Shown here: positions 32,229-37,602 of the stretch, one piece after another
Layout: every line of letters begins with the position of its first letter
Position numbering within the stretch: the stretch's first letter is position 1
Origin: a phage
Sequence record: PZ445521.1
Reading direction: 5' to 3' (one strand)
Length of the DNA stretch: 64,000 nucleotides
Position numbers and translations under genes: made by a program
Notes under the pieces: generated by a model
The model's database searches: none
Told to the model about the DNA's origin: nothing
Seen by the model: only the letters and a program-made list of their open reading frames with translations

Positions 32229-32465
32229 TCAAATGCAAGTAGTAATTACTCCAGTAGTGCTTATGCAGGTATTACCCATTTGCACACCTAAAGATCCATT
32301 TGTATTCACATGAAGATTATCATCAATTTTAACTGATATTTTACCATTAGTGTGAATAACAGTGCTAGATTCAATCACAGGTTGAGTATCATTTTCAACA
32401 CTAACAAATGGAACTGCTGCTAATGCAACTAAACAAACTGCTAAGCATCCCATAACAATTTTCAT
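32229..32465 (-). CDS. secreted small protein, 78 aa
   Basis: Track ORF 32229-32522 trimmed to MKIVMGCLAVCLVALAAVPF (GGAGAATAAA Shine-Dalgarno); signal peptide. Confidence 0.5.
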   Translation of the reverse strand: MKIVMGCLAVCLVALAAVPFVSVENDTQPVIESSTVIHTNGKISVKIDDNLHVNTNGSLGVQMGNTCISTTGVITTCI

Positions 32466-32494
32466 TTTATTCTCCAAATCCGTATCAGTAGTTG

Positions 32495-32533
32495 ATAGTT
32501 GTATAGTACCATGGAAGAACATTCTTGTAAACA
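32495..32533 (-). promoter_or_regulatory. early promoter cassette
   Basis: tgtaaa 32525-32530, atagta 32502-32507, 17-bp spacer; conserved leader and Shine-Dalgarno. Confidence 0.6.
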
Positions 32534-32648: not shown

Positions 32649-35345
32649 TCAGCCAAACAGGAAGTCTAACGAAGCTTTTTCTTCATAGTCCATACCAGCC
32701 GATTCACACATGCCCGCAAGCGGTTTAACAAACGATTTTTGGAACAAAGTTGAGTAGTCAATCCAAGACAGTACGTCAGAACGAATTTCTTTTGGAAGTT
32801 CTGTACCCGACGGCCAAGCAATGCATTTGTCACCAAATGGATTTCCTTCACGCAATGGAAGAACCATTACTTTATTTCCATCCAAAATTGGAGCTACACC
32901 TAAACCGCTAACAGCTCGACGATAAGTTAGCACACCACGAATATGGAACGGACATTTAAATCCTGGCCAACCTTTATCATCATATTTCGCTATATCGTTC
33001 GCAGTTTTTACTTCAGCAATAACTTTATAGTCAAGTTGACGATATTCTTTCTCGAAGTTCTTGTAATATTCTTGGACAGACTCTTCACCTTCCTGAAGAA
33101 TACGACGAATACTTTCTTCGAGAGCTTCTTGGACCGCTTTAGGCGTTGAACTTTGCTGAGTTTCCATACCCATGATTTTTAGATGCGGTTCAGCAAATCG
33201 CTTATCTTCCATATCATAAACGTTCAGAGCATAACGCTTTTTCGCTTTCCAAAATCCACCAACGCCCTTTGAACCAAGTGGAGGGCAAGAAATAGCTTCA
33301 CGGTCCATATGCATCAGATGCTCGCGGTTATTCATATAATCACATAACTCACGATATGCAACATCAATCATAGGTTCCATCTTTTTCTTACCGAACTGAT
33401 TCATGAATTCAACTAAATCGTTCTGCTCTTTGAATCGGTCAAGACCAACTTTTTCAATAACTTTATCTACACAAACATATACCGAATCAGTATCACCTGC
33501 TGCGATGAAATCTTCGCCATTAGTTCCGCATACTTTATTCAGATATTCATTAATTTTACGAGCAATCCACTGAATACCAACTTGGCCGAAAATTGTGATA
33601 GCAGTAGCATTTCGCAAATCATAGTAACGGAAATGAATATTACCAAGAGCACCGTAAAGGCTGTTAATAAGAATTTTACGGTTCAGCTGATTTGTATTAG
33701 CAAGTGTAGCAGCTTTTTCACATTCTTCAATCAGACTATTGAGAACAGATTCAGTATAATTCGATAGTTCATTTAAGAAATCATCACTGAACTTAACATA
33801 TCGTTCAACTTCAGGTTTAGTTGAACAAGACCCTGCGCCTTTCATAATAATCTTTTTAATAGCTTCGGCATTCATTTCTTCAGCGAACATTTTCTTTTTC
33901 CAATCTTTACGCTGGAAAAATACTTTAGCGATTTCCTTTGGAATGATACCTTCTTGATGCTTATCATACATCCATCCATTCGGAGAACAAGAATATTCAT
34001 CACTCGGTTTAGGAGCTGTTCCTGCGATATATTCATGAATTGGATGAACTTTAAACTGACCACGAATAGTCTCAGGACTAATGTTAACCTGACGAATAAT
34101 GCTCGGATACAGAGACGTCAAGTCAAAACTCATAATATATCGACGAGCAATTGGTTTAGGTTCAAATACGAATGCACCCGGAAAACTCTGTTTAACGTGC
34201 GAACCTTGTTGAGGAATAACCTTATGTTCACCTTTCAATGAGTTAAAAATAATAGCATCCCAGGTTTTAATAGGACTCATTACACCAGAAAAAGGCATTT
34301 TAGCGTAATAAGACATACTTAAAACTAGATCGATAAACCCGCGAATTTTATCAATTGCTTGAACTGATTCTACGTCAATGATGTTATAACTAATGTATCG
34401 TTGATGATTAGTCTCACGAAGTTTATTAATAGGACCGTCGTATGGTAATTTACCTTTTTTGGTTTCATGTTGAGCAACTGATTCCAAAGAGAATGACGGC
34501 AAATTAGTAAAAGCGAATTTCTTGTACAAATCTAAATAATCAAGAATAGATACGCCATCAATAGAATAAATTTCTTTGCTACCGTACATATTTTGAATTA
34601 GTTTAGATTTTACCCGACCGATTGGAGAGAAACGTTTCATACTGCGTTCACCGAGAACCATTTTAACGCGATTCATGATATATGGAACGTCAAACCCCTC
34701 AATATTCCAACCAGTAAAAATAGCAGGTCGTTTCTGTTCCCAGAGATTGATATATTCCATGAGCATATCACGCTCATTATCGAATGGCATATAAATTACT
34801 CGGTCAAGAATTTCTTGAGGAACTTCATCACCACCTTCGCAGTCAAGCTTAGCAGCTAACTTTGCATCCCATTTTGATACTGAACCGTACATTGAATTCA
34901 AAAGGTCGAAAACATAAAAACGATCATCAATTGAATCGTAATGAGTGATAACATCAATTTCATATTCAGCTTTCATTGGGTCAGGAAATTTATCACCAGT
35001 AACCTCAATGTCACAGTTAGCTACACGAACAAATTTTCGGTCATAAACAATTTCTGAACCGTATGTATCACTGATATAAGCGAGTTTAAAATCGTTCATA
35101 CCGAGAGCTTCGAGACCGATGTCTTCCATTCGCTTCATCCAATCTCGAGCATCTTTCATTGATGGAAATTTTTGAGGAGCGCAATTTTTACCATAAATGT
35201 CTTTGTATTTTGACTCTTCCTTACAATGCCTAAACATAGTCGGAAGATATTCTACTTCACGAGTACGTTCCTTTCCGTTTTCATCAATATAACGTTCAAC
35301 AATGTTATTTCCGACTGTTTCGATAGAGATATAAAATTCTTTCAT
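32649..35345 (-). CDS. 43: DNA polymerase gp43 (family B)
   Basis: 898-aa ORF, same length as T4 gp43; N-terminal sequence recognised. Confidence 0.95.
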   Translation of the reverse strand: MKEFYISIETVGNNIVERYIDENGKERTREVEYLPTMFRHCKEESKYKDIYGKNCAPQKFPSMKDARDWMKRMEDIGLEALGMNDFKLAYISDTYGSEIVYDRKFVRVANCDIEVTGDKFPDPMKAEYEIDVITHYDSIDDRFYVFDLLNSMYGSVSKWDAKLAAKLDCEGGDEVPQEILDRVIYMPFDNERDMLMEYINLWEQKRPAIFTGWNIEGFDVPYIMNRVKMVLGERSMKRFSPIGRVKSKLIQNMYGSKEIYSIDGVSILDYLDLYKKFAFTNLPSFSLESVAQHETKKGKLPYDGPINKLRETNHQRYISYNIIDVESVQAIDKIRGFIDLVLSMSYYAKMPFSGVMSPIKTWDAIIFNSLKGEHKVIPQQGSHVKQSFPGAFVFEPKPIARRYIMSFDLTSLYPSIIRQVNISPETIRGQFKVHPIHEYIAGTAPKPSDEYSCSPNGWMYDKHQEGIIPKEIAKVFFQRKDWKKKMFAEEMNAEAIKKIIMKGAGSCSTKPEVERYVKFSDDFLNELSNYTESVLNSLIEECEKAATLANTNQLNRKILINSLYGALGNIHFRYYDLRNATAITIFGQVGIQWIARKINEYLNKVCGTNGEDFIAAGDTDSVYVCVDKVIEKVGLDRFKEQNDLVEFMNQFGKKKMEPMIDVAYRELCDYMNNREHLMHMDREAISCPPLGSKGVGGFWKAKKRYALNVYDMEDKRFAEPHLKIMGMETQQSSTPKAVQEALEESIRRILQEGEESVQEYYKNFEKEYRQLDYKVIAEVKTANDIAKYDDKGWPGFKCPFHIRGVLTYRRAVSGLGVAPILDGNKVMVLPLREGNPFGDKCIAWPSGTELPKEIRSDVLSWIDYSTLFQKSFVKPLAGMCESAGMDYEEKASLDFLFG

Positions 35346-35363
35346 AGATATTCCTTAGTTTAT

Positions 35364-35382
35364 AGCCCGAGTTATTAGGCTC
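35364..35382 (-). promoter_or_regulatory. gene 43 translational operator hairpin
   Basis: Transcript reads GAGCC UAAUAACUC GGGCU just 5-prime of UAAGGA and the AUG; loop matches the classical T4 gp43 operator loop AAUAACUC. Confidence 0.6.
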
Positions 35383-35405
35383 TTGATATATTATACTCCA
35401 AATAA

Positions 35406-35419
35406 GGGGCCGAAGCCCC
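35406..35419 (-). terminator. tetraloop hairpin
   Basis: ggggc cgaa gcccc at 35406-35419, U-rich 3-prime side. Confidence 0.45.
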
Positions 35420-35425
35420 TTTGCT

Positions 35426-35662
35426 TTAAATTTCTATTGTACGACGCGATATAACGGACTTGCCATCTGTATTTGTGGTTTTGATAATCGCATGAAATGC
35501 GCGTTGGCGTGGGTAAACTAATCGTTGGAATTCTTTTTGGAATTCTATTTGTTTATCTTCCGGGAGGTCAAAAACCAGTTGGGTAGAAGACAGACCATAT
35601 GTTTGTTTTAGATTTTCGAATATTAGAAAAGCTTCGGTAAACTGAATCTCTGATTGTGTCAT
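35426..35662 (-). CDS. hypothetical protein, 78 aa, between regA and 43
   Basis: Track ORF 35426-35713 trimmed to MTQSEIQF (TAAGGT Shine-Dalgarno, start 11 nt after regA stop). Confidence 0.45.
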   Translation of the reverse strand: MTQSEIQFTEAFLIFENLKQTYGLSSTQLVFDLPEDKQIEFQKEFQRLVYPRQRAFHAIIKTTNTDGKSVISRRTIEI

Positions 35663-35672
35663 ATAATTTACC

Positions 35673-36041
35673 TTAATTACCAATCGTATATTTAGGAACG
35701 AGTTTCCATTCATGTTTTTGCTTAAAAGAAATAACTCGGAAGTTATTAGTTAAATCTTTCATAAAAGTTCTTTGACCAGGAACGATTTCAATCAGTCCCC
35801 AATCTTCTAACAACCATGCTATTGAATCACGACGAACTTCATCTTCTTCTGTCATTTCAACTTGGCGACCATCCATACGAAGCATTTCTTTAAAATGAAC
35901 GATATAGTATAGTCCTTTTTTCTGAAGAATATGACAGGACTGATACAGAACTTTATCTTTATTATTAGCAATTCCCATACGAGTCAAAGTTTCTTTTACT
36001 TTCAGAAAATCTTCAGGTTTTTTAAGAGTAATTTCAATCAT
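35673..36041 (-). CDS. regA: RegA translational repressor
   Basis: 122-aa ORF recognised as T4 RegA. Confidence 0.9.
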   Translation of the reverse strand: MIEITLKKPEDFLKVKETLTRMGIANNKDKVLYQSCHILQKKGLYYIVHFKEMLRMDGRQVEMTEEDEVRRDSIAWLLEDWGLIEIVPGQRTFMKDLTNNFRVISFKQKHEWKLVPKYTIGN

Positions 36042-37567: not shown

Positions 37568-37602
37568 AATTTCCTCATTCAAGTTTTAGTGTAAATTATA
37601 AA

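Follow-up and report, generated by a model that had tools for sequence, protein, structure and literature searches.

orf43.1, a small gene with divergent alleles between regA and gene 43 of T-even-type phages, is probably an accessory gene

Introduction

Miller and Jozwik are said to have reported, in the Journal of Bacteriology in 1990, on the conserved regA sequences and the variable orf43.1 sequences of T4-like bacteriophages (RB18 and RB51). The orf43.1 family has a Pfam entry, PF25760 (Phage_RB18_ORF43, "Phage RB18 ORF43.1 protein"), and its members have been annotated as "similar to RB18 43.1" in RB32 (RB32ORF047c) and as "putative protein ORF43.1" in slur03. No mention of orf43.1 was found in the full-text literature that we searched. 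Adjacent or overlapping stop and start codons are a classic layout for translational coupling. This layout is found in the T4 44/62 pair, in which it implies coordinated synthesis of the subunits of the essential gp44/62 complex.

Two other described systems are relevant to the regA-43 region. The translational operator of gene 43, the DNA polymerase gene, has been described (PMC3014915), and it has been proposed that the UAA of an upstream gene may aid RegA recognition when it lies inside the next ribosome-binding site (PMC3014915). In the hyperplastic regions of RB49 and phi1, ORFan cassettes with promoter-stem-loop elements (PeSL) have been described (PMC2839356).

Here, we present an analysis of the regA-43 interval in a 64,000-nt stretch of phage DNA (sequence record PZ445521.1; referred to below as the window), in which a 78-aa ORF lies between the two genes. 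A sequence-only reading of this DNA had treated the ORF as an unrecognised gene that was inserted into the replication operon. Our results indicated that the gene is a member of the orf43.1 family, and that its absence from T4 more likely reflects a deletion.

Results

The ORF was located at 35426..35662 on the minus strand of the window, with an ATG start codon at 35662-35660, 78 sense codons, and a TAA stop codon at 35428-35426. All of the genes of the regA-orf43.1-43 region were on the minus strand. The regA gene (35673..36041) encoded the translational repressor, a 122-aa protein that was 100% identical to RegA of T4 and RB32, and gene 43 (32649..35345) encoded an 898-aa DNA polymerase whose first 400 aa were 100% identical to those of T4. 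Over a 461-nt stretch, the sequence matched that of Shigella phage JK38 (Tequatrovirus) with 100% identity, and the same 237-nt CDS was annotated there as a hypothetical protein.

The product of the ORF matched PF25760 with a score of 108.9 bits (E = 1.1e-31; the gathering score, which served as cut-off, is 27 bits). The match spanned residues 12-78 and model positions 3-69 of 69, and it was the only Pfam match of the 78-aa product. PHROG 3826, a family of unknown function, was matched over its whole profile length (E = 8.2e-34). The protein shared 97.4% identity with the RB51 ORF, but only 44% with the copy of the RB32/RB18 type. In addition, the gene had regA and gene 43 of a T-even-type phage as its neighbours, and its product had the size (about 70-80 aa), the motif LKxxYGLxxxxxxFDLxExxQxxFQ, and the C-terminal (I/V)E(I/L) of the family; L18, Y22, L24, F31, D32, L33, E35, Q38, F41, Q42, E77, and I78 were invariant or nearly so in the alignments. 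The names given to the protein in source records were "hypothetical" or "uncharacterized". Thus, the homology search that the sequence-only reading had proposed led to a named family that has no assigned function, and a tblastn search of a phage collection yielded 313 phage records that encode a member. Together with the RB32 and slur03 annotations, these results do not agree with the idea of an unrecognised gene: orf43.1 is already known and named, is covered by a Pfam entry, and appears in the annotations of hundreds of genomes.

The regA stop codon (TAA, 35675-35673) was part of the ribosome-binding region of orf43.1. Specifically, the TAAGGT Shine-Dalgarno sequence consisted of the regA stop codon followed by GGT; it was located 7 nt 5' of the ATG, and the spacer between the regA stop codon and the ATG was 10 nt (GGTAAATTAT). 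The ORF and its TAAGGT ribosome-binding site had been placed between regA and gene 43 correctly to the base, and the gene had been said to start 11 nt after the regA stop, which is accurate as a count to the A of the ATG but 1 nt too long for the spacer. The translation initiation region as a whole, UAA (regA stop)-GGU-AAAUUAU-AUG at 35660..35675 on the minus strand, was A/U-rich and unstructured: the fold of 61 nt around the start had an energy of -5 kcal/mol (z = +0.5), which was no more structured than that of shuffled sequences.

A longer, 95-aa form of the ORF, which would start at an ATG inside regA (35713), was considered and rejected. Its extension was the 3' end of regA read in another frame, and the form appeared only sporadically in gene calls (P0010, P0017, and P0019). 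The 78-aa form was favoured because its start was the conserved start of the family and because it was the form annotated in JK38. It should be noted that gene callers often extend orf43.1 into regA (window 35663-35713, minus strand), yielding 85- to 95-aa forms with MNGNSF... or MTGNYC... starts (P0010, P0013, P0017, P0019, and P0046); the seeming conservation of the extension was that of the regA 3' end in the other frame.

Other small ORFs were observed nearby. A second ORF that has no T4 annotation was located at 32229-32522 (minus strand) of the window, between gene 43 and an imm.1-like gene. It was 97 aa long in the ORF list and 78 aa long in JK38, had a hydrophobic, signal-like N terminus, and matched PHROG 4189 (unknown function); T4 has a 183-nt unannotated gap at this position. 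A 49-aa ORF was located between imm and gene 42 of JK38 (L002, 8179-8328), in the counterpart of the window region downstream of imm. In this interval, T4 has a 153-nt unannotated gap, and RB69 has a small ORF described as "similar to T4 42-imm intercistronic region".

Members of the orf43.1 family were found in the regA-43 slot of five genera. The gene order regA, 43.1, hairpin, 43 was observed in RB32 (Tequatrovirus), JS98 (Dhakavirus), VR7 (Gaprivervirus), KM16 and CF1 (Moonvirus), PEi20 and IME523 (Kanagawavirus), and the unclassified Yersinia phage MHG19, which carried two tandem members in the slot. In Tequatrovirus, the RB51-type allele of the window (type A) was present in 69 of 517 records (about 13%), the RB32/RB18-type allele (type B), which was the 44% identical one, was present in 178 of 505 records (about 35%), and the site was empty in approximately half of about 510 records, including those of T4, RB55, RB59, and AR1. 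As had been supposed, there was no gene at this site in T4; the regA-43 interval of NC_000866 was 78 nt and contained no ORF. The proposed comparison with RB69 gave a similar picture, as its interval was 81 nt and contained no gene.

No copy of orf43.1 was found outside of the regA-43 slot via tblastn, a protein profile search, a scan of IMG/VR, or inspection of the window, and no paralogue was present in the 64,000 nt of the window. The profile search, which covered 1.84 billion representative proteins, yielded nine small relatives and two very long repetitive proteins, and the IMG/VR scan yielded eight loci, all of known types. The long proteins (P0034, 3009 aa; P0039, 5500 aa), one of which matched in 49 stretches, were taken as spurious; their matches were probably a compositional or repeat artefact of an EFQKE-like helix. 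Because relatives were few in the protein and IMG/VR searches, the family appeared to be small and confined to this phage group.

As shown by the pairwise comparisons, orf43.1 varied strongly between nearly invariant neighbours. The window (type A) and RB32 (type B) were 100% identical in RegA and in the first 400 aa of gp43, and 44% identical in orf43.1; each was also 100% identical to T4 in RegA and the first 400 aa of gp43, and orf43.1 was absent from T4. In Moonvirus, CF1 and KM16 were 99% identical in RegA and 44% identical in orf43.1. In Kanagawavirus, PEi20 and IME523 were 88% identical in RegA, 93% identical in the first 400 aa of gp43, and 36% identical in orf43.1. The dN/dS values within orf43.1 allele classes were 0.05-0.28, and dS was saturated between classes. 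These values argued that the alleles were old functional lineages that recombination in the conserved flanks had carried from genome to genome, as opposed to products of rapid local divergence. Thus, orf43.1 does encode a protein and is subject to purifying selection.

The sequence between the T4 regA stop codon and the gene 43 ATG was identical to that between the RB32 orf43.1 stop codon and the gene 43 ATG, such that T4 corresponded to RB32 minus 223 nt between ...AATTAA and ...ATTTAA. The RB69 spacer closely resembled the sequence that follows orf43.1 in PEi20. Frameshifted type B copies were found in JB75, PhiZZ23, and one metagenomic contig. The gene had been regarded as inserted in the window relative to T4. 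Because the same slot was occupied in five genera of Tevenvirinae, the T4 spacer was that of RB32 minus exactly the ORF, and decaying copies existed, we consider loss in T4 and RB69 likelier than insertion. By parsimony, the empty site of T4 would most likely have arisen by a clean 223-nt deletion.

Several type B copies were truncated (JB75, L020, 368-535; P0031; P0033) by a frameshift after about residues 40-45, and their products were 55, 62, and 40 aa long. Such copies were either pseudogenes or the result of homopolymer sequencing errors.

In a neighbour-joining tree built from a short alignment, KM16, PEi20, and the second MHG19 gene formed a clade apart from all other members, and the first MHG19 gene was divergent and fell outside of this clade. 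The two MHG19 genes overlapped (L019, 1283-1495 and 1492-1743), and the match of the first gene scored 22.5 bits. The tree and the tandem pair together suggested an ancient duplication with differential retention, to the extent that such a short alignment allows, and the MHG19 pair may represent the ancestral duplicated state from which different copies were kept as "alleles". A similarity between the 3' ends of regA and orf43.1 was examined as a possible footprint of duplication and set aside as too weak (11 of 18 nt matched, including the stop codon).

The DNA between orf43.1 and gene 43 contained several elements. A hairpin, AAGGGGC-UUCG-GCCCCUU, was located 4 nt 3' of the orf43.1 stop codon (35404..35421, minus strand). 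It was followed by TATAAT, a -10-like element that was identical in T4 (35390..35395, minus strand), and by the gene 43 translational operator with its spacer, AAGGAA Shine-Dalgarno sequence, and AUG (35343..35381, minus strand; AUG at 35345-35343), a region that was identical to that of T4. The operator hairpin, AGCCU-AAUAACUC-GGGCU, was located at 35381-35364 and was supported by folding. Hence, the ORF did end ahead of a tetraloop hairpin and an intact gene 43 operator, as had been read from the sequence.

The UUCG hairpin had a stable stem of 7 bp and was labelled a terminator in the annotations of JB75, G50, and KAW1E185. Its 3' tail, UAUUUGG, was short, and a terminator scan of the minus strand made no call there. 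We consider it likely that the hairpin terminates the regA/orf43.1 transcripts or stabilises their 3' ends. In other phages, stem pairing was kept by compensatory changes (GGGGC/GCCCC, GGGAC/GUCCC, GGGCC/GGCCC, and GGAGCC-UACG-GGCUCC), and a UNCG tetraloop (UUCG, or UACG in IME523) was retained across genera after orf43.1 or regA. Therefore, selection seemed to act on the RNA structure itself. No Rfam family matched the regA-43 region. The TATAAT element was not called in a sigma-70 scan because it had no -35 element; in fPS-90, a promoter was annotated in the interval that holds it.

Compared to T4, the 80 nt 5' of the gene 43 ATG were shared, including the UUCG hairpin, TATAAT, and the operator loop, and the exceptions were one extra A and 3-4 nt next to the ORF stop codon. 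In T4, the hairpin-operator sequence joined the regA stop codon directly, whereas 247-249 nt with orf43.1 lay between them in the window. Because the UNCG hairpin and TATAAT intervened, orf43.1 appeared to be the last cistron of the regA-containing unit and to lie outside of the gp43 autoregulatory unit. The sequence-only reading had placed the gene in a single replication operon that ran through gene 43. The regA side of this claim was retained: within the replication gene cluster, orf43.1 was on the regA side, and so its product is expected with the early and middle proteins. The view of gene 43 as simply the next cistron was not retained, since the conserved hairpin and TATAAT separated orf43.1 from the gene 43 operator.

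Of nine arrangements examined, eight had an orf43.1 start codon that was 1 nt past the regA stop codon or overlapped it. The coupled starts had the form UAA-U-AUG, with GUG as the start codon in CF1 and the overlap UAAUG in KM16. The type A allele had the 10-nt spacer and the UAAGGU Shine-Dalgarno sequence instead of a start 1 nt past the stop. We propose that orf43.1 would be transcribed on prereplicative messages that also carry regA and have their 3' end at the UUCG hairpin. In most phages, ribosomes that finish regA at its stop codon would go on to translate orf43.1, and in the type A allele, the UAAGGU sequence would replace this coupling. With either layout, synthesis of the orf43.1 product would be in step with that of RegA. 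The arrangement is like that of the T4 44/62 pair in its adjacent or overlapping stop and start codons, but orf43.1 is dispensable and RegA shows no co-variation with it, in contrast to the essential gp44/62 complex.

Because the A/U-rich, unstructured start region contained the regA UAA, it was possible that orf43.1 is repressed by RegA. The start region, AAAUUAUAUGA, resembled the gene 44 operator, AAAUUAUGAUU, and UAAGGUAAAUUAUAUGA, which was unstructured, also resembled the gene 44 site. The motif AAATTAT(N0-2)ATG occurred 4 times versus 2.85 expected, which was not a significant enrichment. Since the motif was not enriched over chance, we offer RegA control of orf43.1 only as a hypothesis. 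For gene 44 itself, the ORF list used an upstream TTG start (324 aa; window 37568-37582, minus strand), and JK38 and T4 annotate an ATG five codons downstream (319 aa), the start region of which is the classical RegA operator.

An AlphaFold model of the small, soluble orf43.1 protein, based on a 20-sequence alignment, had a pLDDT of 93.9 and a pTM of 0.81. It consisted of two helices (residues 3-21 and 35-49) and a beta-hairpin (strands 55-63 and 69-77), and the conserved loop YGLxxTQxxFDLxE was located between the two helices. The type A protein differed from all other alleles in its longer first helix, which contained an extra FTEAFLIFEN segment. The predicted fold had no match in the PDB, and none of four family members tested matched a PADLOC defence-protein HMM. 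Proteins of the family were hydrophilic and neutral to acidic (pI 4.5-6.6), with no conserved cysteines or membrane segments; these properties favoured a protein-binding role over direct binding of nucleic acids.

Discussion

The gene studied here and orf43.1 of RB18 and RB51 (PF25760) belong to the same family and occupy the same regA-43 position, and nothing of substance differs between them. The results presented here are probably best explained by a small, non-essential accessory gene in a fixed slot, which is bounded by the regA stop codon and by the hairpin at the end of the regA transcription unit. The role that we predict as most likely for its product is that of a non-essential protein-binding accessory factor that is made together with RegA.

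The partner of such a factor might be a host or competitor factor, so that the protein would act in host takeover, anti-defence, or exclusion and would not be a core part of the replisome. This proposal is tentative, and we would not put it quite at even chances. It was favoured because the gene showed presence/absence polymorphism and ancient, swapped alleles although its flanks were identical. Genes that face variable host or competitor targets are expected to show just such a polymorphism, with a null state and two alleles beside flanks that do not differ. More doubtful, but still worth considering, is the idea that orf43.1 encodes an uncharacterised effector with a new small fold and RegA-timed synthesis, which is kept in balanced polymorphism against a variable host factor, and whose alleles may be differently retained copies from an old tandem duplication that can still be seen in Yersinia phage MHG19. 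The target of this effector would be, for example, a defence system or a competing phage, and the two ancient allele classes and the null state would make up the polymorphism.

A functional tie of the protein to RegA or gp43 would explain just as well why orf43.1 keeps its position so strictly and is coupled to regA in different genera. In that case, it would be a partner or modulator of its neighbours, such as an anti-repressor or specificity factor of RegA, or a partner of gp43 or the clamp-loader, and it would tune translational control or replication. This would account for the invariant position in five genera and for start codons that are 1 nt past or overlap the regA stop codon, an arrangement that resembles the coupled 44/62 pair, and the conserved polar and hydrophobic residues of the core motif (L18, Y22, L24, F31, D32, L33, E35, Q38, F41, and Q42) could face a conserved partner. 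However, RegA and the first 400 aa of gp43 were 100% identical in the presence of allele A, allele B, or no orf43.1 at all; since the neighbours were identical whatever the allele, there was no co-variation, and they evidently work in the absence of orf43.1. Furthermore, about half of the Tequatrovirus records, including that of T4, and also RB69 do not have the gene. Thus, a modulator of the neighbouring proteins seems unlikely, both as a description of the protein and as an account of its constant placement and coupling.

A recent mobile cassette, such as a moron, a PeSL cassette, or homing-endonuclease cargo that entered a T4-like ancestor, is much less probable. The presence/absence polymorphism, the sharp boundaries at gene ends, and the short TTAA-containing similarity at both junctions are features that a cassette could leave. 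The PeSL cassettes (PMC2839356) are also similar in that a small ORF that can be dispensed with adjoins a GGGG...CCCC stem-loop and a -10 element, and in that gain or loss occurs exactly at gene boundaries. However, PeSL cassettes are flanked on both sides, and here the hairpin and -10 element were present on the 3' side only, with the regA stop codon on the 5' side; this single stem-loop/promoter element is also present in T4, and no two flanking repeats were found. Moreover, orf43.1 lies inside a conserved replication cluster and not in a hyperplastic region, and it would rely on upstream transcription and regA-coupled translation. The 78-aa ORF was the only ORF in the variable segment, which contained no endonuclease, integrase, transposase, or other domain. 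The slot was filled in five genera and synonymous sites were saturated, which argues for old residence, and the frameshifted remnants point to ongoing loss. In addition, no copy was found away from the slot. Finally, a chance open frame within a non-coding spacer, which might be imagined for an ORF that is short, AT-rich, and devoid of functional annotation, is extremely improbable given HMM E-values of 1e-31 to 1e-34, dN/dS values well below 1, a confident fold, and the conserved placement of the start and stop codons.

As a finding, the gene is not new to phage biology, and that T4 lacks it is an already known difference between strains. What it represents is a dispensable, allele-swapping cassette within a replication gene cluster that is rigid in other respects. 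No known relative was found for the predicted fold of its product, which could turn out to be a new factor in host interaction or to modulate expression under RegA control.
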